From the NCBI GenBank assembly GCA_964429815.1, contig CAYSCM010000005.1, positions 1 to 10,856 of the forward strand: 10,856 bases of DNA, written 5' to 3'. How positions within the stretch are numbered: position 1 is the stretch's first letter; the number at the start of each line of letters is the position of its first letter. Below the pieces are notes generated by a model that ran no database searches, had not been told where the DNA came from, and worked only from the letters and a program-made list of their open reading frames with translations. The translations under genes and the position numbers were made by a program. Shown here one piece after another: positions 1 to 10,856 of the stretch. The DNA is from an uncultured Candidatus Saccharibacteria bacterium (GTDB lineage: Bacteria > Patescibacteriota > Minisyncoccia > Phycocordibacterales > CAYSCM01).

Positions 1-62
1 CTCAATGGTAGAGCAGCTCCCTGTTAAGGAGTTGGTTGTAGGTTCGAGTCCTACCACCGGAG
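1..62 (+). tRNA. tRNA-Asn (anticodon GUU), 5'-truncated by the window edge; CCA not encoded
   Basis: D-arm GCTCAATGGTAGAGC-like at 1-14. Anticodon stem gctcc/ggagt (16-20/28-32) with 7-nt loop CTGTTAA gives anticodon GTT. Variable loop tggtt. T-arm gtagg-TTCGAGT-cctac (38-54). 3' acceptor strand caccgga plus discriminator g (55-62). Confidence 0.8.
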
Positions 63-83
63 CAGTAACACTTAGTAACACTC

Positions 84-104
84 CATGCCCGTCGGGCATG
101 TTTC
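84..104 (+). terminator. Hairpin terminator downstream of the tRNA
   Basis: Perfect palindrome catgccc-gtc-gggcatg (84-100) followed by ttt (101-103). Confidence 0.5.
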
Positions 105-146
105 GCCTCCTGCCGGCGGTGCTTCATTCCTGAGAGAATTGCCGGC

Positions 147-362
147 ATGTCTCGCGTCACTATTACGTTTTCGATCTCTTTACTCCCCGACATGGCCGCG
201 GACTTGGATCGCGTTTGCAAAGAGGAGCACCGCACGCGGTCCGAGCTAATCCGAGAGGCACTGCGACGATATTTTGCCCTTCGCACATTTTGGAAAGACA
301 AACTCGACCAGGCTCCGCTGGAGGCTTCATCGCCTCACCCACCGCGAGCTCCTGGGCGGTGA
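147..362 (+). CDS. Ribbon-helix-helix (CopG/ParD-type) DNA-binding protein, putative antitoxin or transcriptional repressor, 71 aa
   Basis: N-terminus MSRVTITFSISLLPDMAADLDRVCKEEHRTRSELIREALRRYF matches the RHH beta-strand-helix-helix pattern (T-I-T-F/L...SELIREAL). Direct repeats tgccggc at ~110 and ~141 upstream could form an operator. No partner toxin ORF lies downstream. Confidence 0.6.
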   Translation: MSRVTITFSISLLPDMAADLDRVCKEEHRTRSELIREALRRYFALRTFWKDKLDQAPLEASSPHPPRAPGR

Positions 363-682
363 ATGAATAAACGCGCGAGCTTGCAGGGATTGATTGTGGG
401 TAATCGAGGCCTATATGGCGCGCTCGGGCAAGGGATTTCTCATGGAGGTCCACATGCCTTGGAGTTCTTGGACTAAGAGCGGAAGCGGTGAATCGAAGAG
501 CAAAAGCGTCGAAGCCTCAAGAAGCTCGAGCGGAAACAGGGAGACGCACCACCTGAGCACGGCAGGAGGTGGACGCCACCACTCCGGCGGAGGCGACAGA
601 GGCAATCACACGCACGTCGTCGTTCAACACCGTGAGGGCCGCAGCACGGCCCACGCCGTCCCTCACAAGCATAATCGATAGA

Positions 683-1096
683 CTATCGGACTTGCGGAGA
701 GCCGCTGCCGCCCCTGAGCAGCGGCTCGATTTTTTTGTACTCTCTTGCTGCATCAAAAGCTTTGTACGACTGACTATATTCATGAGCGCCCTCGCAATAG
801 ACCGACACATCGAGCGCAAAATCTCTGACCTGCGAAGACAGCTGCTCAATTTCTGATATCAGAAAGAAGTAGGCCGAGAGTGGCATGTCGGTCTCGCCTC
901 TCTTGAGCTTTCTGAGCCCATACTCGAGCATGGCGCGTACGTCGATCGCGTCGACATTGAGAAATCCGATCAGCTTGGGGAGATGAGGGTTGTTCTTGTT
1001 ATCTGCCAGGAACTCGGCAAACGACTGACGCGATTCGTCAGAAAGCTTTGCTGCCACCCTTTCTTCGGCTGATGTCATGACGCGAGCATAGCACAC
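683..1096 (-). CDS. Hypothetical protein, 137 aa (131 aa if it starts at the ATG at 1078)
   Basis: The translation has protein-like composition (…KLIGFLNVDAIDVRAMLEYGLRKLKRGETDMPLSAYFFLISEIEQLSSQVRDFALD…), unlike the overlapping alternative-frame ORFs, which are R/S/A-rich. No recognisable motif. No clear SD. Confidence 0.45.
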   Translation of the reverse strand: MCYARVMTSAEERVAAKLSDESRQSFAEFLADNKNNPHLPKLIGFLNVDAIDVRAMLEYGLRKLKRGETDMPLSAYFFLISEIEQLSSQVRDFALDVSVYCEGAHEYSQSYKAFDAAREYKKIEPLLRGGSGSPQVR

Positions 1097-1199
1097 TCGC
1101 TATGAAGATCGGATTGAGCCTCCATCGCGATTGCCGTGGAGAAAAAATGGACTCAGTTCGATAGTGCGCGAGACCCCGCAGTCGAAGGTTTTTGAAAAC

Positions 1200-1379
1200 T
1201 TAGTTCGTCTCGTTTTTATTCGAGTCCATTTCGGGAGTTTGTAAGCGCTCGTGGATGCGCAGAACGACCGTTAGGTACTGACGCAGGTTATAGAGCCCCT
1301 CTTCCCTTCTCGCCTTTCTGGCTCGAGGCATGAGGCTTTGGATAAAAGCGTTCGGGTCAAACTTCTTCTTTTTGATCAT
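1200..1379 (-). CDS. Possible small basic protein, 59 aa (MIKKKKFDPNAFIQSLMPRARKARREEGLYNLRQYLTVVLRIHERLQTPEMDSNKNETN)
   Basis: ATG-initiated ORF missed by the 60-aa ORF cutoff. Lys/Arg-rich N-terminus. Same strand as, and ~100 bp upstream of, the 683..1096 ORF. No SD and no homology recognised. Confidence 0.2.
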   Translation of the reverse strand: MIKKKKFDPNAFIQSLMPRARKARREEGLYNLRQYLTVVLRIHERLQTPEMDSNKNETN

Positions 1380-1467
1380 TGCGGCACCCTACTTGATTGA
1401 TGAAGGAAAGCTACATCGGCGTGAGAATAAGGTACCGATCCGCAAGGGCTGATGAGGTGCGCCCGGT

Positions 1468-1496
1468 GGCTGCATGCTAAAATGAAGCATGCAGCC
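1468..1496. promoter_or_regulatory. Perfect 10-bp inverted repeat ggctgcatgc-N9-gcatgcagcc overlapping the start codon of the 1489 ORF (candidate operator or RNA hairpin)
   Basis: Read directly from the sequence. The right arm contains the ATG at 1489. Confidence 0.45.
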
Positions 1497-1725
1497 GTCT
1501 TCAACTTGGACCCCAGAAGAGTGGCGGGAGTTCGAAGGTAAGCTTCGCCTTCTGCCACTCGATGATCTCGCCGCTCTCTCTGGCAGGACCGGCCTTACAT
1601 TTACACGGCCCGCATCGGAGCTCACCAGAGAGGATTACATTGGCGCGCTCGACGAGTCTGACAAAACAGAGCTCTTGAAGGCGTACGACGAAGTAGTTTC
1701 CCGCCGAGGTCGACAGAACACCTAG
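1489..1725 (+). CDS. Small HeH/SAP (Rho-N-like) motif protein, 78 aa, hypothetical
   Basis: LLPLDDLAALSGRTGLTFTRPASELTREDYIGAL fits the helix-extended-helix pattern LxxLxxxELxxxAxxxGLxxxxxxxK/RxELIxxL of SAP/Rho-N/LEM domains. Protein-like composition. Convergent with doc. Confidence 0.45.
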   Translation: MQPSSTWTPEEWREFEGKLRLLPLDDLAALSGRTGLTFTRPASELTREDYIGALDESDKTELLKAYDEVVSRRGRQNT

Positions 1726-1730
1726 GTCTT

Positions 1731-2090
1731 TCACTCCTTCGCGAAGAGAAGATTTGCAATCTGGCGAATGACTGACTGGTGGTCGTCCTCCTGGATCTTC
1801 TCGATAAACACCGCAAGCTCGTCGAGCGTTGGGTTGTCGCCGCCAAAGTTCGGTGAGAGAGCGTTGACCTCACAGACGACGCTGAACACGAGACAGGCGG
1901 TGCGTTTGTTGCCGTCGGTGAACGGGTGATCTTTGATGAGGAAATAGATATACGCCACAGCCTTCTCTTCGATCGTGGCGTAGTTGGGTGCTCCGTAGTG
2001 GGCGCCCGTGATGTTCACGACGATAGACTCGACGATCTGCTGCGCCGAGACCGTCAGAGGGAATGAGACCAGCCCCTCCTTATGCAGCAA
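1731..2090 (-). CDS. doc: Doc (death-on-curing) toxin, Fic/Doc family kinase. Probable TTG start at 2090; the maximal ORF runs to a GTG at 2159
   Basis: Diagnostic Doc motif H-P-F-T-D-G-N-K-R (HxFx[D/N][A/G]NKR) in IKDHPFTDGNKRTA. N-terminal region IVESIVVNITGAHYG aligns to phage P1 Doc LIALHDANISRYGG. Starting at TTG gives a Doc-sized ~119-aa protein that overlaps the upstream ORF's stop by 11 nt. The GTG start at 2159 would overlap the upstream ORF by 80 nt. Confidence 0.85.
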   Translation of the reverse strand: MLHKEGLVSFPLTVSAQQIVESIVVNITGAHYGAPNYATIEEKAVAYIYFLIKDHPFTDGNKRTACLVFSVVCEVNALSPNFGGDNPTLDELAVFIEKIQEDDHQSVIRQIANLLFAKE

Positions 2091-2271
2091 CTCGTATACG
2101 AGGCAGACGCTTTTCGGCGGTACGAGTTGAAATGTTCTTTTTCCCGGTGTCGTAGTCACGAAGCGATTCTAAGACGGGCAGGTTCTTCTTGAGCTGCCCT
2201 TGTGCAACCTTCTCAAAGGATCCTTTTGCTGTTGTGCGGCGTTTGCTAGCCATACGGCGATTATACCTCAT
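2080..2271 (-). CDS. Putative antitoxin partner of Doc (not recognisably Phd/YefM-like). In-frame starts at TTG 2286, ATG 2271 and ATG 2253
   Basis: Small basic ORF immediately upstream of doc, whose TAA stop is embedded in the doc 5' region. It is placed by its position alone, which matches the toxin-antitoxin operon arrangement. Sequence …MASKRRTTAKGSFEKVAQGQLKKNLPVLESLRDYDTGKK…. Confidence 0.5.
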   Translation of the reverse strand: MRYNRRMASKRRTTAKGSFEKVAQGQLKKNLPVLESLRDYDTGKKNISTRTAEKRLPRIRVAA

Positions 2272-2286
2272 AATCGACACAATCAA
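2254..2286 (-). promoter_or_regulatory. Candidate sigma70-type promoter of the antitoxin-doc operon: TTGATT (2286..2281) - 15 bp - TATAAT (2265..2260), with ATG 2253 only 6 nt downstream (possible leaderless transcript)
   Basis: Hexamers read directly on the minus strand. The spacer is short (15 bp), so the call is tentative. Confidence 0.35.
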
Positions 2287-2407
2287 AAATGAAGCGACGC
2301 GGATACGATTCTAAGAGTCTAGAGTTGCATCCTTGGCTACCTAGACAATTTCTAAACGTGTGGTTGTATTCAGTTGGAGACTAACTGGTTCGAAGGGAGC
2401 AAAATCC

Positions 2408-2713
2408 ATGTCACTCGATCAGTGGCTTTTTCTAATCGGCGCAGGTTGGTGGCTCATCGTTGGAATGATCAGTACGCTCGTCAGCGAATACCGCACACAG
2501 TCCATCGTCGTGGTGATCGCCCAGATCCCGATCTGGGTTTTGATGCCATTGTGCTGCGTCGCTTGGCTAGCAAATAATTGGGCGACGAGTGAAGGCGGTG
2601 TTGCCGGTACAATCGTATTGGCCGCGATCTGCTGGCCCATTGCGGCGTTTCTCATGCATGCACTTGTCAAAGACCTTCGCGGTCATGGAGACCACGAGCC
2701 GCAGCACACCTAA
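2408..2713 (+). CDS. Small integral membrane protein (2 predicted TM helices), hypothetical, 101 aa
   Basis: MSLDQWLFLIGAGWWLIVGMISTLV… followed by IPIWVLMPLCCVAWLANNW…GTIVLAAICWPIAAFLM. GGGAG lies 10 nt upstream of ATG 2408, one of the few SD-like sites in the window. The longer ORF from 2360 lacks an RBS. Confidence 0.55.
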   Translation: MSLDQWLFLIGAGWWLIVGMISTLVSEYRTQSIVVVIAQIPIWVLMPLCCVAWLANNWATSEGGVAGTIVLAAICWPIAAFLMHALVKDLRGHGDHEPQHT

Positions 2714-2991
2714 GCACCCTTCGTCAGCGCCGTTCGCCACTGTGGTGGATGGCGCCTTCTTTTATGCCGTCCCCAACTCTTTCTCGACCTGCGTGGTAAA
2801 GTGTTTCAACAAGACGTCGAATGTTGCCTTCACGGCCATTCGAGGTGTGTCCCGAACAAGTGAGCAAACGAGAGCCGCGCGAAAGCGTGCTTCCGCATGA
2901 CCGAGCTTGCAACGACGGCAAGCCCTGCTTACCGCCGGAGTTTGATATTTTGAGCCATGATTTTGCCTACCCTTGCGGGGGGTTAAAGCTT

Positions 2992-3020
2992 TTGAAGATT
3001 CAGATAATTGGTAATATACT
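2992..3020 (+). promoter_or_regulatory. Candidate promoter TTGAAG-17bp-TATACT for the 3075 gene. An alternative -10 TATTAAT lies at 3054-3060.
   Basis: AT-rich island in a GC-rich window, with near-consensus hexamers and 17-bp spacing. Confidence 0.4.
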
Positions 3021-3074
3021 AGTCGCAAAACCGTCTTATACGGTAATTACAAGGTATTAATTTTATTTCATCAT

Positions 3075-3752
3075 ATGAGAAGAATTGCATTAATGCTTGG
3101 ATCCCTTGGGTTTCTTGCAGTAGGTAGCGTGGCGTTCGCGCAGACAGCGTCCACGACTACTAGTGGCACAACAACTGCAGCCCCCGCACAGCAGATAGTT
3201 CTGCAGATTGGCCCCACAGGCAAGGTTCTTTTGCGCGGCACCATTGATTCAGTGTCGGCGACGTCTCTCACCGTCAAGAGCTGGGGCGGTGATTGGACTA
3301 TAAACGTACCCGCGTCTGCTGGGGTCATGCCGCAGGGCGTTGCGCTCTCAAGCTTCCATCAGGGTGACTTTGTCGGAGTTCATGGAACGGTCAACCAAAG
3401 CAGCAGTTGGACCATTGACGCAACCCTCGTGCGCGACTGGACCGCGCGTCAAGCATTGAATCAAGAGATAAAGAACAATGTTCAGACGGTACATCGGGAA
3501 ATGGCAGCCGGACCGAGAACAATCCAGGGAGTCCTTAGCAACCTGAATGCGTCAGCACAGACCTTCACGCTCACATCCTCAGAGGGTACCGCTTACTCGG
3601 TTACGCTGGCTTCGGGCGCAAAACTTCTCGCTCAAAATTGGGCGACGCTTGATCTTAGCAAGGTGAGCAACGGGGATACGGTTCGCGTATACGGAACGAT
3701 CTCGGGCTCGGCAATATCAGCGACGATCTTCCGAGATGTGTCGGTGAAATAA
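3075..3752 (+). CDS. Secreted protein with two tandem DUF5666-like beta domains, 225 aa
   Basis: Sec signal peptide MRRIALMLGSLGFLAVGSVAFA|Q, then a T/S/A-rich linker. The ~85-aa module is present twice (GKVLLRGTIDSVSATSLTVKSWGGDWTINV…GDFVGVHGTV…TIDATLV and RTIQGVLSNLNASAQTFTLTSSEGTAYSVTL…GDTVRVYGTISGSAISATIF). The pattern G-V/I-…-TLTV/TFTL…GD-V-V-G matches the DUF5666 family from memory. Confidence 0.75.
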   Translation: MRRIALMLGSLGFLAVGSVAFAQTASTTTSGTTTAAPAQQIVLQIGPTGKVLLRGTIDSVSATSLTVKSWGGDWTINVPASAGVMPQGVALSSFHQGDFVGVHGTVNQSSSWTIDATLVRDWTARQALNQEIKNNVQTVHREMAAGPRTIQGVLSNLNASAQTFTLTSSEGTAYSVTLASGAKLLAQNWATLDLSKVSNGDTVRVYGTISGSAISATIFRDVSVK

Positions 3753-3772
3753 TCCGGGGTCGAAAGTAAAAA

Positions 3773-3806
3773 CAAACGACGGTCACGCGACCGTCGTTTG
3801 TTTTTT
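3773..3806 (+). terminator. Rho-independent terminator: perfect 12-bp stem caaacgacggtc / gaccgtcgtttg, loop acgc, then TTTTTT
   Basis: Read directly. Lies 21 nt after the 3752 stop. An A-run upstream makes it potentially bidirectional. Confidence 0.85.
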
Positions 3807-4102
3807 GTGGCCACGTTCAGATTAAATAGCGCAAGCTAAGATAGAGAGGCATGTGAATCTTATCCGCCCATACTTATCCATGCCCTAACGGCTTTAAATG
3901 CGCGAAGCTAAACCTTGCTGCGATAAATTCGTTAAAATAGTAAAATGAGGCATGTTTTTAGGAAAGCAACATGAGAGGAGGATCAATAAGCTGCTCTCGG
4001 GCGGCTTTTTGTTTTGAGAAACCAGGCTTCTACGCGCATGGATTCTGAGCAGTCGGTCGCAAAGCGAAGGAAGCCTTCTTCACGCGAAACGTACAGTCGA
4101 TT

Positions 4103-4111
4103 TGGTATACT
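4103..4111 (+). promoter_or_regulatory. Extended -10 element TGgTATACT upstream of the VOC gene pair
   Basis: The same TGgTATACT nonamer recurs at 6533-6541 (panD). TATACT is also the -10 of the 3075 promoter. Confidence 0.35.
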
Positions 4112-4138
4112 GCCCCGGTTACTAGTAAAAAAATCTCT

Positions 4139-4543
4139 ATGAACCCCGTCGTTCACTTCGAGATGCCCTACGAGAACCGCGATCGTATGGCGGACTTTTA
4201 TTCGCAGGCGTTCGGATGGCAGCTCAATAAGCTGGGGTCTGACATGGGCGACTACGTCGTCGCTATGACCTCGGAGCGCTCCGACCCGAGAGCCCGCCCG
4301 GAGAAGCCCGGCGTTATCGATGGTGGCTTCTTTAAGAAAAGTAAGCAAAACCAGGTGCCGGGCATCGTCGTAGCCGTCGACGATATCAAAGCCGCGATGA
4401 GGAAGGTCGAGGCTTCCGGCGGAAAAATAATCGGCGCGAGCCAAGGAAAGGAACCTGACGACATCCCCGGCGTCGGGCTCTATATCTCGATTCAAGATAC
4501 CGAGGGTAACCGCGTGGCGCTTCTTGAGCCGCGAGGAATGTAG
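4139..4543 (+). CDS. VOC (glyoxalase/bleomycin-resistance/dioxygenase) family protein, 134 aa
   Basis: N-terminal VHFEMPYENRDRMADFYSQAFGW, a beta-alpha-beta-beta-beta module start typical of PhnB/glyoxalase-like VOC proteins. C-terminal …GLYISIQDTEGNRVALLEP. Confidence 0.8.
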   Translation: MNPVVHFEMPYENRDRMADFYSQAFGWQLNKLGSDMGDYVVAMTSERSDPRARPEKPGVIDGGFFKKSKQNQVPGIVVAVDDIKAAMRKVEASGGKIIGASQGKEPDDIPGVGLYISIQDTEGNRVALLEPRGM

Positions 4544-4545
4544 CC

Positions 4546-4932
4546 ATGTTCAAAAACACTCCGACATTTACGAGCATCTCCGCTCCCGACATTGCCGCGA
4601 TGAGGGCCTTTTATGGCGACGTACTCGGACTTCCGGTCGATGAGGCTCCCGAGGGACTCACCGTCAAGCTTTTCGGCGGCGGCCACTTCTTCATCTATCC
4701 TTCAGAGGAGTACCGCGCGCCTGAACATACGGTCCTCAATTTCATTGTTCCCGATATAGACAAAGCCGTGGATAGGCTCAATGCCAAGAGCGTCACGATG
4801 GAGCAGTATCCGGAATTCCGGACCGATGAGAGGGGCATTTGCCGCAACGACGGGAAGCGGCCCGGACCCAAGGCCATCGCGTGGTTCAAGGACCCGGCAG
4901 AGCACATCCTCGCGGTGATAGAGGAAAAGTGA
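4546..4932 (+). CDS. Second VOC/glyoxalase-family protein, 128 aa. Starts 2 nt after the previous stop, so likely co-transcribed.
   Basis: AMRAFYGDVLGLPV…HTVLNFIVPDIDKAVDRL…AIAWFKDPAEHILAVIE, a VOC-fold pattern. Confidence 0.75.
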   Translation: MFKNTPTFTSISAPDIAAMRAFYGDVLGLPVDEAPEGLTVKLFGGGHFFIYPSEEYRAPEHTVLNFIVPDIDKAVDRLNAKSVTMEQYPEFRTDERGICRNDGKRPGPKAIAWFKDPAEHILAVIEEK

Positions 4933-4969
4933 CACTCGTGAGTAGAAACTTAGCAGGTAATAAAAAAAT

Positions 4970-5305
4970 ATGAAGAAATTTTTAGCACTCCTCAATGCCC
5001 CGCTCGCCTCCTTCGATAGGGCGCTCAAAATGCCAAAAGAGGATATGGGCCCGGCAATGGAGGCGTGGAACACATGGATGGCCGCGCACAAGAAAGATCT
5101 CATTGACCCGGGTGCTCCTGTCGGCAAGAGCATGAAAGTCACTCCCGCCGGAGCAGAAAAGTTCCGCAACCAGGTCGGCGGCTACATGGTGGTCCAGGCG
5201 AAATCGCTCGAGGAGGCGGCCAAACTGTTCGGTAAAGGCCACCCGCACTATATGCTCGAGAACGCATGGGTCGAGGTGACGGAAATACTGCCGATGGATA
5301 TGTAA
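4970..5305 (+). CDS. YciI-like / dimeric alpha+beta-barrel (Dabb) family protein, 111 aa
   Basis: MKKFLALLNAPL… …GGYMVVQAKSLEEAAKLFGKGHPHY…VEV resembles the YCII-related domain signature. Confidence 0.55.
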   Translation: MKKFLALLNAPLASFDRALKMPKEDMGPAMEAWNTWMAAHKKDLIDPGAPVGKSMKVTPAGAEKFRNQVGGYMVVQAKSLEEAAKLFGKGHPHYMLENAWVEVTEILPMDM

Positions 5306-5402
5306 GCACGCTCGCAGAAATTTTTTAAGCCCTTGCCCTACCCCAAACCCCTTAAAAAATTTCAGCTCGCTCCCGGCGGAAAAGATTCTAGATGCAGTAT
5401 AG

Positions 5403-5434
5403 AAAAACGCGCGGCCCAGGGGCCGCGCGTTTTG
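5403..5434. terminator. Strong bidirectional rho-independent terminator shared by the convergent YciI-like and PLP-enzyme genes
   Basis: AAAAA-cgcgcggcc-cagg-ggccgcgcg-TTTT: a 9-bp GC stem with an A-run on one side and a T-run on the other. The minus-strand gene's stop is 14 nt away. Confidence 0.85.
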
Positions 5435-5447
5435 TCGTTCACCCACT

Positions 5448-6443
5448 TTAGTCCACTACGTCGAGGATGGTCGAGTACTTGTCCGCATAGCTCTCTCCCA
5501 AATCGGGACAAACGAACGCGGCCTTGATGCTCCCATCCCTGCCGCGTAGCGCATCGAGCCTTCCTGAATCTTTCTCCTTCCGAAGAAAGTCAAGAAGTCC
5601 TACGTAGGCAAGGCCGGAACTTGGCCCTGGGCAAACGCCGAGCGCTCTGCGAAGGTCGAGGCTCGCTTGGTAGGCGCGCGAACGCTTCCCGAGCGTCATG
5701 AGGGCACCCTCGGAGATAGCGCTTCTCCAAGGGAGACGCACGAGCTCTAGGGATAGTTTGCTTTCGGCGCGAACGCCGGGCACCGGTCCCTCGTCCCCTT
5801 CCGCGCACACCACACCGACGACCTTGGTGGAAAATTCGCAAGCCCGTATGTAACGGGCAAGACCCACCACGGTGCCGCCGGTACCGACACCGGCGGCGAC
5901 CGCTGAGAGGGTTGCCTCGAAGGGGTCGAGGATCTTCGGCGCAAGGAATTTCTCGAACGCCTTCGGATTGTCGTCGTTGTCGTACTGGTCGAGGTTGAGG
6001 TATCCGGGTTCTTTGCCCTTTTCTCGCGCACGCTCGATGCAGGTAGCCTCTCCTTCACGTTCGGGAAAATCCTGGAAGCGTGCGCCGTAGAAACGCAGAA
6101 GCGCGAGCTTAGTGAGTGGTGTGTCCGAGCGCACGTAGAGCTCGACTTTGAGACCGAAGGCCGGCGCCGCGATCGCAAGCCCAAGCCCGGTGTTCCCTGA
6201 CGTACCTTCGACGATTGTATGTACGCCCTCAAGACGTCCGGCTTCATGCGCGCGAAGGAGCATGTACACCGCCGGGATGACCTTGTGCGGGAGTCCTGCC
6301 TTGTCGAACCCGAGTGCCGCAAAAATCCTGACCTGGTCCGTGATGAGTGGGTCAAACCCCGTCGGAATCCTCACCAAGGGGACGCTTCGGTTTTGGGGAT
6401 GGAGGAACTTTAAAATCCCCCCACTCCCGTTTGGCGTCTTCAT
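5448..6443 (-). CDS. PLP-dependent fold-type-II enzyme of the cysteine synthase / cystathionine beta-synthase family (CysK/CysM/SbnA-like), 331 aa from ATG 6443
   Basis: PHKVIPAVYMLLRAHEAG (PLP-Lys region). IVEGTSGNTGLGLAIAA matches the VEPTSGNTGIALA motif. QYDNDDNPKAFEKFLAPKILD matches QFxNPxNPxxHxxTTGPEI. AAGVGTGGTVVGLARYI matches the G-rich loop GVGTGGT. GGAGAG SD lies 8 nt upstream of ATG 6443. The longer ORF to 6557 would run into the panD promoter. Confidence 0.85.
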   Translation of the reverse strand: MKTPNGSGGILKFLHPQNRSVPLVRIPTGFDPLITDQVRIFAALGFDKAGLPHKVIPAVYMLLRAHEAGRLEGVHTIVEGTSGNTGLGLAIAAPAFGLKVELYVRSDTPLTKLALLRFYGARFQDFPEREGEATCIERAREKGKEPGYLNLDQYDNDDNPKAFEKFLAPKILDPFEATLSAVAAGVGTGGTVVGLARYIRACEFSTKVVGVVCAEGDEGPVPGVRAESKLSLELVRLPWRSAISEGALMTLGKRSRAYQASLDLRRALGVCPGPSSGLAYVGLLDFLRKEKDSGRLDALRGRDGSIKAAFVCPDLGESYADKYSTILDVVD

Positions 6444-6549
6444 AGTGCTCTCCGTAGTCGTTGAACGGTATGCGGCCGCGCCGCACATTCCGCCTAGAGC
6501 GTAATCCGCCCGTGCCACGCTGTCAAAGACGGTGGTATACTTTGGTGCC

Positions 6550-6927
6550 ATGCTCATAAACGTCTGTATAGCGAAGATCCATCGAGCGACTGTGACCGAT
6601 GCGGACCTCGACTACGTAGGCTCCATCACCATCGACCAAAACATCCTCGAGGCGGCCGGGCTTCGTCCTGGGCAAATGGTCCAGATAACCAATGTTAGCA
6701 ACGCCGTGCTCTGGCGGACCTACATACTCGCCGGAAAAGCCGGGAGGGGCGATATCGTTCTCAACGGCCCCCCGGCGCGCCTTTTTAAAAAAGGCGATAA
6801 GGTCATCATCCTCGGCGAGGCATATCTCGAACCCTCAGAAGTCAAAGATTCGCATCCGACCGTCGTGTTCGTCGACGAAAAAAATAAGATCATCCGCGTC
6901 GAGGAGAGCGCCTGGAAGAAGTCGTAG
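6550..6927 (+). CDS. panD: Aspartate 1-decarboxylase (pyruvoyl-dependent), PanD; alternative GTG start at 6532
   Basis: Near-full-length match to PanD: AKIHRATVTDADLDYVGSITIDQNILEAAGL…Y…GRGDIVLNGPPARLFKKGDKVIILGEAYLEPSEV…PTVVFVD. Includes catalytic K and H, the Gly-Ser self-cleavage site (VG|SITID) and the C-terminal pattern seen in Thermus-type PanD. ATG 6550 gives the canonical N-terminal length. An extended -10 at 6533-6541 suggests a near-leaderless mRNA. Confidence 0.9.
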   Translation: MLINVCIAKIHRATVTDADLDYVGSITIDQNILEAAGLRPGQMVQITNVSNAVLWRTYILAGKAGRGDIVLNGPPARLFKKGDKVIILGEAYLEPSEVKDSHPTVVFVDEKNKIIRVEESAWKKS

Positions 6928-6930
6928 GAC

Positions 6931-7542
6931 ATGTGGTGGTCACCGACCCATTGGGTGAATGTCATTTTGGCCGCTTCGGTCCCCCACCACTGGCTCATGC
7001 CGGTCTCTATCATCGCCGGCACATGGATCCTCGAAGACCTGACCACCATTCTCGTCGGCATCCTGGCCGCGGACGGACTTATCAAGATAGGAGTAGCACT
7101 CATCGCCCTTTGGATAGGCATCATCACGGGCGACTACGGCCTCTACTTCCTTGGTATGCTTGCCAAAACCCATCCGCGCATCCGGCGGTTTGTCGAACAC
7201 GAGCGGCTCCTCCCCATACGACGGCGCCTTGAGCGCAATCTGCGTGAGGTCGTCATTTCGACGCGCTTCATTCCGGGATTGCGACTCCCCACCTACGTCG
7301 CCTGCGGATTTTTCCGGATGCCGTTTTGGGAATTCGCGCAGTCGGTCGTCCTTGCAACCCTCATCTGGACCACAGGGCTCTTCGCCGTGGCGTACCTCTT
7401 CGGTCAATCGACCTCTGACTGGCTTGGTTTCTGGCGGTGGCCGATCGCGATAGGGGTGTCAGCTTTTTTCTTTTTTATGGCGAAGCGAAGAGCGAAGCGC
7501 ACTGCGTATGAAGACAACAATGAACGAACCGACCCCCGCTGA
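6931..7542 (+). CDS. DedA / SNARE-associated (VTT domain) family inner-membrane protein, 203 aa
   Basis: Multi-TM hydropathy. DedA signature …GLYFLGMLAK…STRFIPGLRLPTYVACG (R-F-IPG-R…AG). Starts 4 nt after the panD stop, so same operon. Confidence 0.85.
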   Translation: MWWSPTHWVNVILAASVPHHWLMPVSIIAGTWILEDLTTILVGILAADGLIKIGVALIALWIGIITGDYGLYFLGMLAKTHPRIRRFVEHERLLPIRRRLERNLREVVISTRFIPGLRLPTYVACGFFRMPFWEFAQSVVLATLIWTTGLFAVAYLFGQSTSDWLGFWRWPIAIGVSAFFFFMAKRRAKRTAYEDNNERTDPR

Positions 7543-8638
7543 CATAGACCGGAGATGGCATGAACTTTCGGGGCGCCTTCCCGGTGAGCCGATTTTCAGT
7601 TTTTTCGAGAATTGGCCGGGTTCCTTTTTCTACATTCCTGTCGCGGTGGCGTGGTTTTTCTACGCGCTGCGCTACCGAAGCTTCACGCTTCCGCTCCTCA
7701 GCAATCCGTCGATAGAATTCGCGGGGCTGTGCGGAGAGAGCAAGTGCGGGGTCCTCAGCCTCTTGGGATCCTCCGGAAAGGAGCGGGTAGCCTCCTACAT
7801 GCGATTTGAAAATACCACCGGGCGCGCGAGCGCGGATGAGCTCTTGGGTAGTGCCACCGCTGGCGGCCTCCGGCTCCCCTTCGTTCTCAAACCCGACATC
7901 GGACGGCGCGGCACGGGGGTGCGCATCGTGCGGACGAAGGAAGACGTCGAAGCCTACCTTGAAGCTTTTCCGCGAGGCCGCGCTCTCATCGTCCAGCGGC
8001 TTATCGAAGAAGAAGGCGAAGCGGGGGTCATGTACCTGCGCTACCCCGGCGAAGGACGGGGGAAAATCATCTCGCTTACCCTTAAGTACTTCCCTGCCGT
8101 CGTCGGCGATGGCAGAGCAAGCCTTCGGGAGCTCATTTTGCGCGATGAGCGCGCCCGCCGGCTTGCCAAGAGCTACTTCACGTACCACAAAGATTCTCTG
8201 GAAACTATCGTGCCGCGGGGGAAACGCATAAAGTTGGTTGCTGTCGGAAACCACGTGCGCGGTTCTCTCTTTCGGGATGGCCGCCCGTTCATAACGTCGG
8301 GCATGACCGACGCATTCGACAAGATCGCGCGTGAAATCCCGCATTTCCACCTTGGACGGTTTGACGTGCGCTTCGAGAAACTCTCTGACCTCGCCGTCGG
8401 AGAAAACTTCACCATCATCGAGGTAAACGGCGCCGGAAGCGAGGCGACCCACATTTGGGACCGCCGTGCGAAGCTTTTTGACTCCTATCGAACGCTCTTT
8501 GCGCATGCCAAGGCGCTCTTCGACATCGGCCTCCACTACAAACGCGAAGGCCGTAGAGCTCCCTCGTTCGGGGAAATCGCTCGGGCCTATGTCGCGGAAA
8601 AAAAACTTCTCGCTTCGTATCCCCCGCTTACGGAGTAG
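7508..8638 (+). CDS. ATP-grasp ligase (RimK / alpha-L-glutamate-ligase-like) with an N-terminal transmembrane anchor, 376 aa
   Basis: N-terminal TM helix SFFYIPVAVAWFFYAL. ATP-grasp core: LPFVLKPDIGRRGTGVRIV (K-P…G-x-G-V), ALIVQRLIEEE, and the Mg-binding IIEVNGAGSE (E-x-N motif as in RimK/Ddl). The start overlaps dedA by 35 nt. An in-frame ATG at 7520 is an alternative. Confidence 0.8.
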   Translation: MKTTMNEPTPADIDRRWHELSGRLPGEPIFSFFENWPGSFFYIPVAVAWFFYALRYRSFTLPLLSNPSIEFAGLCGESKCGVLSLLGSSGKERVASYMRFENTTGRASADELLGSATAGGLRLPFVLKPDIGRRGTGVRIVRTKEDVEAYLEAFPRGRALIVQRLIEEEGEAGVMYLRYPGEGRGKIISLTLKYFPAVVGDGRASLRELILRDERARRLAKSYFTYHKDSLETIVPRGKRIKLVAVGNHVRGSLFRDGRPFITSGMTDAFDKIAREIPHFHLGRFDVRFEKLSDLAVGENFTIIEVNGAGSEATHIWDRRAKLFDSYRTLFAHAKALFDIGLHYKREGRRAPSFGEIARAYVAEKKLLASYPPLTE

Positions 8639-10856
8639 AGAGCGTCGTTGATGACGTTGATGACGTTGATGACGTTGATGACGTTGATGACGTTTCGACT
8701 ATAACGGTGCGCGTGCTCGTCGCGGTGTTTCCCGCTGCATCGGTCGCGACGTAGTCGATAGTATGGGTGCCAGGAAGACCAGTATTGAGAGAAACTTCCA
8801 TGACAGCGACCCCATCGACGTAGGTCGTATATCCGAGGTTTTGGCTCACATTGTCGGAGACGGTGGCGCCAAGGTCGGAATACGCCTCTCCCACGTGAAT
8901 GGTGGCGGGGTTATTACCTTGTATGACGATAGTCGGCGGCGTCGAATCCAAAGAGGTTTTCGAGATACTCCCTCCCGATGATGTGCTGCTGGAACTTACG
9001 CTCAAGCTTCCTGTTGTACCTGCCGCCGCGGAGGCTGAGAGGAGTTTCACGAGGTCATCTTTCGTCACGCACACGCCGCTGACGCACAACTTTTCGACAT
9101 AGACAATGTCGGAGTGGACTTCCTTTGCGAACACGCGATCGAACACTCCGGCCGCAGCGTAGATAGCGCCGTCGAATGCATGGACGAGTAGTTGTCCGAG
9201 AGAGGAGAGCGCGTCACGAAGTTCCTGAGAGCTGTCGGAAAACGCTCCGGCTCCTGCGACGCTCGACGTTGCCGCACCGGGAGGTGCAACGAGATATGAA
9301 ATCGTCGTCGTCGGCAAAAGCGGAGCGACAAGGGCATGGAGCTCCTGGACGGCGGAGACGAGGTAGGGGGTAAAGCCCGCATAATTGAGGGCGAGCGTCC
9401 CCCAACTACTTTGATATACCAGATCGGGTGCGATCTTCTGAACTTCTTGCGCAAGAAAACCTGTGTGAGTCGGGGTTCCTGAAGCCTCGGCAAGCCAGTT
9501 ATAGGTCACGGGATTAAGGGACAAGACCGTTCCAAGTGCGGGGGCGAGCTTCTCGATATTATTTTTAAGCGTCGCATCGGACGAACAGGTAACACCGGTC
9601 GTCGGGATGATCCAACAACCGCCAGCAGCATTACCGAAGGCAGCGACGGCAGTGGCGGCGCCCACGGAAGCATTGCCAACGGAGAGAAGGGACGAGGTTG
9701 CGGTTGTTGTGCCGATACCGACACTGCCCGTGTAGTTAATCGTGATGGTCGAAGTGCTCGTCGTTGCAAAGCTATCCGAGCTCGTGGCGATGTAGAGGTT
9801 CCCGCCGTTGGAGCGTATAGACCAGTGCTTTTGGTTAGACCCTGCGCTCGGATCGGTAAGGGTAAGCTGTGGACCGGTCGAAGATGCGATTTGAAGTGCC
9901 CACTGCGGAGTCGTGGTGCCTATGCCCAAAATCCCGCTCGGGGCTATCGTAAGAGGCCCGGGGCCTGATGAGGTCGCATAGGTAGAAGGAGAGGATGTCG
10001 AGAAGTACAGAAAGCCGCCGGCATTTCTGAAGCTCCAGTGAACGTTCGTAAGGGAGGATGGGTCCGAGAGCGCAAGTTGTGCTCCGGTCGAGCTCGCAAT
10101 TTGGAGGGCCCACTGCGGTGAGGTCGTGCCGATGCCGACCTTGAGCGCTCCGGCGAGGGCGAGCGCAGTGGTATCGGTCGTCGAAGTTGCCCATTGAGTA
10201 CAGCCCGCCGCAGTGATGAGCCCATTTTTGTCCGTGCGCAGACAGGCTGTATTGGTACCCCCTAAACTTGAAAGCCAGAAATTTGTCGTTGAGGCATTCG
10301 TGCTCACAAAGTTTGTCGTGGTCGCCGAGGTGCCGGTCGCGTTCACGAAGGTGAAATTCTGGAGCGTCGTGGAGCCAGTGGCCAGAAGAGTGCTGAAGGT
10401 GCCGAGTCCCGTCGAGGTGATGTTGCCAGCGGAGAGGACGGTGGCGAAGAGATTGGTGGAAGAGGCGGTGGTTGAGAAAATGGTCGAGCTTGTGGCATTC
10501 CCCAAGGTCGTCGTGGCAAGGGTGGCGAATGAAGCGAATACGTTCGTTGAGGAAGCTGTGGTCGTAAACAACGTCGAGCTCGTGGCGTTCCCTAGTGTCG
10601 TCGTCGCCGCGTTGAGGTTGCTAGCAAAGAGATTGGTGCTGCTGGCGGTGGTCGAAAAGATGGTCGACGAGGTGGCATTCCCTAAAGTCGTGGTGGCAAG
10701 AGTGATAAAGGAAGCGAACAAGTTCGTCGAAGAGGCGGTAGTGGCAAAGAACGTCGAGCTCGTGGCATTGCCTAGAGTTGTCGTAGCCGCGTTGAGATTA
10801 CTGGCAAAGAGGTTGGTGGAGGAGGCGGTCGTTGCGAAGAAAGAGGTGCTGGTTGC
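8631..10856 (-). CDS. Large Thr/Ser/Ala-rich repetitive fibre / tailspike-like protein with a C-terminal S74 intramolecular-chaperone domain, an Ig-like (DUF5011-like) domain and a (TSS)5 tail. The 5' end (N-terminus) lies beyond the window end.
   Basis: The minus-strand frame stays open from 10856 to the TAA at 8628-8630. The apparent start at 10721 is a TTG inside a repeat, and upstream codons continue the same 30-aa repeat. 30-aa repeats ATTTLGNATSSTxFxTTASSTNLFAS… span ~10390-10856. A duplicated module IGTT(S/T)PQWALQIASSTG…W S(F/I)R(N/S)(A/N)GG(F/N)LY lies at ~9700-10140. The S74 signature CSS|DATLKNNIEKLAPALGTVLSLNPVTYNWL…GFLAQEVQKIAPDLV…GTLALNYAGFTPYLVSAVQEL (SDxxxK; cleavage Ser codon ~9579-9581) is followed by a ~160-aa chaperone body. 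PTIVIQGNNPATIHVGEAYSDLGATVSDNV…THTIDYVATDAAGNTATSTRTVIV lies at ~8694-8939. Confidence 0.85.
8647..8691. repeat. Perfect 9-bp x5 tandem repeat (gttgatgac)5 encoding (TSS)5 at the C-terminus of the fibre protein
   Basis: Read directly. Partial copies flank it (8644-8646, 8692-8694). The unit length is a multiple of 3, so copy-number change keeps the frame. Confidence 0.9.
10390..10856. repeat. Imperfect ~90-bp (30-aa) tandem repeats, at least 5 copies in an alternating two-flavour (60-aa) pattern, continuing beyond the window
   Basis: Protein-level repeats (…NLNA-ATTTLGNATSSTxF-TTASSTNLFAS-FxTL-ATTTLGNATSST…). DNA copies are recognisably similar but carry synonymous and near-synonymous differences. 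Confidence 0.8.

Follow-up and report, generated by a model that had tools for sequence, protein, structure and literature searches.

A tandem 30-residue repeat in a tail-fibre-like protein of an uncultured Candidatus Saccharibacteria bacterium, a candidate beta-rich fibre shaft

Introduction

The first 10,856 nucleotides of contig CAYSCM010000005.1 (forward strand; GenBank assembly GCA_964429815.1), from an uncultured Candidatus Saccharibacteria bacterium, were analysed and are referred to here as the window. The distal part of the window encodes, on the minus strand, a tail-fibre-like protein with a Peptidase_S74 domain, whose visible part begins with a tandem array of 30-residue units. An earlier note on this DNA had drawn attention to the array and regarded it as a candidate heavily glycosylated, beta-helical or fibrous shaft. 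Here we present the organisation of the array, its relation to a module that recurs in Patescibacteria, and an assessment of its role. With moderate confidence, the array is best explained as a shaft or spacer, rich in beta structure, that was built by tandem amplification of the family module and belongs to a surface fibre that the S74 domain would mature.

Repeat units and periodicity

The array extends over positions 10428-10856 of the window and consists of four full 30-aa units, preceded by one partial unit of 23 aa; the earlier count of at least five copies was thus too high. As had been noted, the array runs off the window and the protein is longer than 742 aa, the frame being open to the window end. 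The unit consensus is ATTTLGNATSSTxFxTTASSTN(L/V)FA(S/T) followed by a four-residue joint, which reads NLNA, FITL, NLNA, FATL and then a degenerate VLSA along the array. Tandem Repeats Finder reported, for positions 10447-10829, a period of 90 (4.2 copies, 64 % matches, score 255) and a period of 180 (2.0 copies, 80 % matches, score 472). Alternate units share 87 % (U1/U3) and 90 % (U2/U4) amino acid identity and 78 % and 74 % nucleotide identity, respectively, whereas adjacent units share 73-80 % and 60-68 %. Because alternate units are closer to each other than adjacent ones, the two-flavour super-period of 60 aa (180 bp), first recognized from the alternating NLNA and F(I/A)TL joints, is real. 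At 60-78 % nucleotide identity the DNA copies are more diverged than the 75-85 % estimated by eye.

Each unit can be divided into six pentads (NATSS-TFFAT-TASST-NLFAS, then FITLA or NLNAA, then TTTLG). The array is composed of nine residue types only (T, S, A, F, L, N, G, I and V), with 23 % bulky hydrophobic residues (F/L/I/V) and neither proline nor charged residues. Serine and threonine account for 48 % of the array and 46 % of aa 1-205, in place of the approximately 60 % initially given. The motif GNATSST occurs in four of four full units, which bears out the presence of NAT in every full unit, and NIT, NFT, NAT and NAS occur in the segment that follows. Residues 155-194, previously taken for a degenerate continuation of the array, are the canonical and best-conserved form of the family module described below. 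All four full units and aa 155-194 fit the family pattern, with T-T-A-S-S-T-N-L-F following x-F-x and N-A-T.

The family module in Patescibacteria

The module …LLxxGSSTLQNFTFxNATGT(S/N)ATTTN(F/L)FSTTASSTNLF… was surveyed in the first 120 homologues and was found 71 times, in 32 of them. Its A, T, F, N and L positions are 77-100 % conserved, with several columns at 90-100 %. The 30-aa unit is a tandemly amplified short form of this module, from which the STLQNFTF lead and a pentad are missing. Such short-form units of 30 aa also stand in tandem in the homologues P0135, P0129 and P0179, and blocks of modules are amplified in the family with periods from 17 to 120 aa. The module at aa 155-194 is up to 87 % identical to modules of small, unrelated Patescibacteria proteins. 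Four small homologues (P0121, P0122, P0123 and P0125; 270-360 aa) are made up of an N-terminal anchor, a conserved 'VVTHSTQHxNANDAIEALQAKLGI' segment, one canonical module and a distinct C-terminal domain. Since these four place a single module before a different C-terminal domain, the module serves several architectures.

A filter-free scan of 1.84 billion representatives delivered 79 proteins at E <= 1e-3, a count lowered by composition correction. Among them are very large proteins from Parcubacteria, with 27 matching stretches in a protein of 2,747 aa, 22 in one of 5,078 aa and 7 in one of 6,101 aa. The homologue search with the array alone returned 6 matches, a number probably lowered by composition correction, and a tblastn comparison of the array with phages gave no match, a result that the low-complexity filter makes uninformative. 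No entry in Pfam, NCBIfam or PHROG covers the module or the array, PDB sequence searches were empty, and a word search of the literature library yielded no paper with the motif. The array is an ordinary member of this uncharacterised family and one more example of it.

The S74 fibre protein and its relatives

The fibre gene lies on the minus strand in a frame at 8628-10856, with 742 open codons and the stop codon at 8628-8630; the frame contains no start codon inside the window, and the 5' end of the gene lies beyond it. From the N-terminal side the protein is composed of the repeat array, the conserved 40-aa module, two modules of about 85 aa, the Peptidase_S74 domain, an immunoglobulin-like (Ig-like) domain and an (SST)n tail (Table 1). 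The S74 domain matches PF13884 over profile positions 1-58 of 58 (E 1.1e-15; 58.1 bits against a cut-off of 22), and Pfam gave no match in aa 1-420. Residues ~350-511 have matches to PHROG tail-fibre families. Ser426 does not vary among 51 aligned homologues, and Lys431 is conserved at 90 % or more. In pb1 of phage T5 the scissile residue is Ser1264 and the activating residue Lys1269, and the trimeric S74 chaperone is lost by auto-proteolysis after folding (PMC4690869). The spacing of Ser426 and Lys431 equals that of the T5 pair (PMC4690869).

The search for homologues returned 490 proteins, the closest of which is at most 71 % identical. Named homologues come nearly all from Patescibacteria (Parcubacteria, Minisyncoccia, Kaiserbacteria, Vogelbacteria and Saccharimonadales). 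At the N-terminus of full-length relatives lies a signal peptide or a transmembrane segment as membrane anchor. No phage genes were found in the window or in the neighbourhoods of three homologues, all of which are housekeeping. Judged from these comparisons, the protein is a tail-fibre-like surface protein of Patescibacteria (Parcubacteria-type), and it is assigned to the cell rather than to a phage because its neighbouring genes are housekeeping genes.

In the homologues P0038, P0065, P0032 and P0131 an N-terminal cytoplasmic HTH_17-like domain (…YISAxRAAKxIGYASDYIGQLCRAKKIP…) is followed by a transmembrane helix and then by fibre modules. This layout recalls MYRF, a membrane-tethered transcription factor processed by an S74 domain.

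Structure prediction and proposed role

Two AlphaFold2 predictions were made. In the first, on aa 1-215 with an alignment made for the array, the repeats are all-beta; each unit comprises three strands, and the chain turns at G-N, S-T and A-T, at predicted local distance difference test (pLDDT) values of 55-73. The second, on the whole protein, gave pLDDT values of 80-93 for the S74 domain, 90-97 for the Ig-like domain and 65-84 for the ~85-aa modules. The columns of the array are poorly aligned in alignment A2. Both predictions are for a monomer only, and would be poorly suited to testing a shaft that forms an intertwined trimer.

A proline-free and uncharged composition of nine residue types, 23 % of it bulky hydrophobic, is unlike that of a disordered linker and fits beta structure. 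In the proposed role, the units would fold to a regular beta structure, either as a single-chain beta-solenoid with one coil per unit or as an intertwined trimer. The conserved Phe, Leu and Ile residues would pack the core, and the conserved Gly-Asn and Thr/Asn positions would serve in turns and ladders and not as sites for glycans. The array would act as a rigid spacer, with fibre length set by copy number. As in phage fibres, the downstream S74 domain would trimerise, help the shaft upstream of it to fold as its chaperone, and afterwards cleave at Ser426.

Several points weigh against this explanation. The mean pLDDT of the first run was 57.6, in the second run aa 1-203 had pLDDT values of 31-45 and no secondary structure, and Foldseek found no match against the PDB at E < 1. 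Trimerisation and auto-cleavage are presumed, by analogy, from the domain family only. The S74 domain does not stand at the extreme C-terminus, being followed by 261 residues after aa 481 that include the Ig-like domain; this internal position is common to many relatives from Patescibacteria. The N-terminus, and hence the anchoring and the copy number, lies outside the window, and O-glycosylation may occur on so Thr/Ser-rich a surface. Of the ordered shaft put forward earlier, the beta-solenoid or fibrous shaft stands as the most plausible reading; the two AlphaFold2 runs conflict over an ordered solenoid.

Glycosylation

Under a second explanation the array is a glycosylated stalk, in which the NAT sites are N-glycosylated, the Thr/Ser residues O-glycosylated, or both, to form a mucin-like, protease-resistant spacer. 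We regard this as unlikely, though worth weighing. GNATSST stands in each of the four full units, further N-x-S/T sites lie at aa 145, 167, 172 and 187, the Ser+Thr-rich region (48 %) is extracytoplasmic by homology, and the low-confidence model places the NAT asparagine in a turn, where it would be accessible. However, only 4 of 13 asparagines in the array are part of N-x-S/T, as compared with 6.2 +/- 1.7 in composition shuffles (P(>=obs) = 0.94), and sequons are likewise not above chance in aa 1-205 and in the whole protein. The extended sequon of the PglB type, D/E-x-N-x-S/T, does not occur in the 742 aa, and the array is devoid of acidic residues.

Conservation in the family also argues against sequons. 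The two sequon Asn positions are conserved at 56 % and 46 % and often replaced by Ser, Leu or Thr, as compared with 90 % for the non-sequon asparagine of T-N-L-F and 68 % for that of T-N-F-F. The threonine two residues past the sequon asparagine is kept at 93-97 % with or without the asparagine. Asn/Thr conservation fits structural roles and not recognition by a transferase. The lack of proline and the conservation of aromatic and aliphatic residues set the array apart from mucin-type regions. A gene for a glycosyltransferase or an oligosaccharyltransferase (STT3/PglB-type), the check suggested by the earlier note, was found neither in the window, nor in locus L001, nor in the three homologue neighbourhoods, the remainder of the genome being outside the scope of this search. 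The one paper in the searched library that mentions both Patescibacteria and oligosaccharyltransferase deals with archaeal pili. The reading of NAT as a glycosylation sequon is therefore not upheld: it is not enriched, has no D/E at position -2, and its asparagine is less conserved in the family than non-sequon asparagines.

Alternative folds

A third explanation, in which the array is a low-complexity linker that is intrinsically disordered and adopts no defined fold, is improbable. It would agree with the lack of secondary structure in aa 1-203 in the whole-protein prediction (pLDDT 31-45), and with the composition correction of HMMER, which strips most array matches. Yet conservation is position-specific beyond composition, and synonymous sites are nearly saturated while dN/dS stays at about 0.15 (see below). 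The 23 % of bulky hydrophobic residues and the absence of proline and charge also speak against disorder, as do the regular strands predicted by AlphaFold2 from the array-specific alignment. Low confidence in a monomer model is to be expected of an intertwined trimer, and the array is poorly aligned in A2.

The array might instead be a quadrilateral beta-helix of the pentapeptide-repeat (Rfr) type, which we consider quite improbable. One unit would then form 1.5 coils of 20 residues, and the return to the same face every 60 aa would explain the two flavours. The six pentads per unit follow a scheme of small, N or T, hydrophobic, x, x that resembles A(D/N)LXX, and asparagine recurs every five residues in the family module. 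On the other side, no Pfam pentapeptide model matched the array or four relatives at E <= 10, and the AlphaFold2 model places three strands in every 30 residues instead of six short faces. The period-5 power in the array is partly a harmonic of 30, and outside the array it is weak and confined to asparagine (z = 3.9).

Membership of the pentapeptide-repeat family was rejected, and the likeness is treated as a structural analogy only.

Age of the copies and reliability of the assembly

Identical residues in adjacent units use the same codon at a rate of 0.30-0.39, as compared with 0.32 expected by chance from the codon usage of the gene, and 50-52 % do so in alternate units. Several serines that are identical between units use different codon families. 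The two 180-bp super-units differ by 0.14 non-synonymous (dN) and 0.91 synonymous (dS) substitutions per site, a dN/dS of about 0.15 that is noisy, being based on 60 codons only; dS among copies ranges from about 0.9 to saturated. Because codon matches are at chance level and dN/dS is about 0.15, the copies are old and are maintained by purifying selection on the protein. The latest growth of the array would have been the duplication of a two-unit block of 180 bp, which would yield the alternation of two flavours. The divergence of the copies is explained without special selection for a stable copy number. The earlier suggestion of such selection went too far, as the divergence is what is expected of old duplicates under purifying selection (dN/dS ~0.15). 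Frequent recombination in the array is unlikely.

The longest exact direct repeat within the array is 17 bp. With this and the divergence of the DNA copies, assembly collapse is unlikely, and the description of the array as a genuine, ancient in-frame repeat in a fibre-type protein holds. A collapsed or chimeric assembly can practically be dismissed: the window end falls within the array, and an independent Logan assembly of the same locus, which matches window 1-8675 at 100 % identity, stops inside a 9-bp repeat at the opposite end of the gene, but the copies differ at 22-40 % of bases with no more than 17 identical in a row, the frame is kept with mostly synonymous or conservative substitutions, and similar 30-aa arrays occur in independent assemblies of other species.

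Comparison with known systems

The protein shares the S74 domain, with its serine and the lysine five residues on, with S74 phage tail fibres and tailspikes (K1F endosialidase; T5 pb1, PMC4690869) and with MYRF's ICA (intramolecular chaperone auto-processing) domain (PMC8326128). As in the phage fibres, a repetitive, probably beta-rich region lies upstream of it. The gene differs from them in standing among Patescibacteria housekeeping genes and not in a phage, and the chaperone is internal here, followed by a linker, the Ig-like domain and the (SST)n tail, whereas it is C-terminal there. The 30-aa repeat has no match among solved or curated fibre repeats.

The same NATGTxATTTNxFSTTASSTNLF module occurs in Patescibacteria proteins annotated as 'tail fiber domain-containing', 'DUF5011 domain-containing' or hypothetical giants (MBX4195606.1, MBX4189076.1). 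Many of these share the architecture of S74 and PF16403 and the tandem amplification of module blocks. They have two to three units or other periods (17 to 120 aa), whereas the present protein has a run of four or more short-form units, spaced strictly at 30 aa and arranged in a two-flavour super-period of 60 aa.

Serine-rich repeat adhesins of Gram-positive bacteria are near-dipeptide, low-complexity proteins with dedicated glycosyltransferase and accessory-Sec genes. The present array differs from these and from mucin-like stalks in its 30-aa repeat unit, in which hydrophobic residues hold fixed places, and genes of that kind are absent from its vicinity. There was no sequence-family match to pentapeptide-repeat proteins, pectate-lyase-like beta-helices, curli CsgA or Thr-rich ice-binding proteins, and the fold model (mean pLDDT 57.6) was not reproduced in the second run.

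Gene context and further features

The features of the fibre gene are summarized in Table 1.

Table 1. Position of features of the fibre gene in the window
Feature	Residues	Window position	Strand	Support
Partial unit U0, ATSTSFFATTASSTNLFASNLNA, truncated at window end	1-23	10788..10856	-	
Unit U1, joint FITL	24-53	10698..10787	-	
Unit U2, joint NLNA	54-83	10608..10697	-	
Unit U3, joint FATL	84-113	10518..10607	-	
Unit U4, degenerate joint VLSA, last tandem copy	114-143	10428..10517	-	
Canonical long-form family module, STLLATGSTTLQNFTFVNATGTSATTTNFVSTNASTTNFW	155-194	10275..10394	-	Homologue comparison
Conserved segment after the family module (LSSLGGTNTAC…), bearing the first cysteine of a loop with two Cys (C…GLITAAGC in full)		10209..10274	-	
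Two ~85-aa modules, GIGTTxPQWALQIASST…HWSxRxxGGxLYxxTSS	240-412	9621..10139	-	Predicted beta-rich, pLDDT 65-84
Peptidase_S74 intramolecular chaperone / auto-processing domain, Ser426 and Lys431	426-481	9414..9581	-	Pfam
Bacterial surface Ig-like domain (PF16403 / DUF5011)	644-720	8697..8927	-	Pfam, E 4e-12; pLDDT 90-97
C-terminal tail (ET)(SST)5TLSTP and stop codon		8628..8696	-	Mostly encoded by the 9-bp repeat

The two-Cys loop pattern that follows the family module is also present in homologues. The ~85-aa modules are a second internal duplication, unrelated to the 30-aa array and directly upstream of the S74 domain; their fuller motif, GIGTTxPQWALQIASSTGxQLxLxDP…HWSxRxxGGxLYxxTSS, recurs in many homologues. 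The part after the S74 domain (aa 482-742, window 8631-9413) contains predicted helices, a pair of cysteines conserved at 90 % or more (C591 and C596), the PF16403 Ig-like domain and the SST tail. Cleavage at Ser426, if it occurs, would generate a fragment of about 317 aa (aa 426-742) that would be released or retained non-covalently.

The tail (aa ~722-737) is encoded by a perfect tandem repeat of 9 bp x 5.4, CGTTGATGA, at window 8646-8694. Its copies are 100 % identical, unlike the diverged 90-bp units, which makes in-frame slippage plausible here. The 3' end of the fibre gene overlaps by 11 bp (window 8628-8638) that of a convergent ATP-grasp-like open reading frame at 7508-8638 on the plus strand. 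The GC skew of the plus strand is strong over the fibre gene (+0.18 to +0.22; window 9500-10500), due to C-rich Thr, Ser and Ala codons on the minus-strand coding sequence and not to a replication signal. Other genes in the window encode a PanD-like decarboxylase, a pyridoxal phosphate (PLP) enzyme, glyoxalases, a DedA-type protein and a Fic protein. Exact-DNA scans of genome and metagenome contigs for the full gene and an exact look-up of the partial product gave no match, and the sole result of a related-locus scan was a 32 %-identical relative from Paceibacterota. The neighbouring gene was met on one other contig only, which terminates within the 3' (SST)n repeat of the fibre gene.

Implications

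In a broader and rather speculative view, the module could be an undescribed structural repeat distributed throughout Patescibacteria, either an uncharged beta-solenoid with Thr/Asn ladders, made of pentads with about 30 residues per coil, or a trimeric fibre repeat of a new type. Host-attachment fibres would then share it as a building block, from proteins of 300 aa to giants of up to 6,101 aa, and its Thr/Asn faces might bear glycans. Attachment to other cells is the way of life of Patescibacteria, and little is known of the machinery behind it. The module, very strongly conserved yet uncurated, is found in hundreds of surface proteins of these bacteria, coupled to a folding chaperone of the phage type. 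Because it is strongly conserved, recurrent and chaperone-coupled, the module is a reasonable candidate for a fibre-shaft element, and merits a family definition and a structure.

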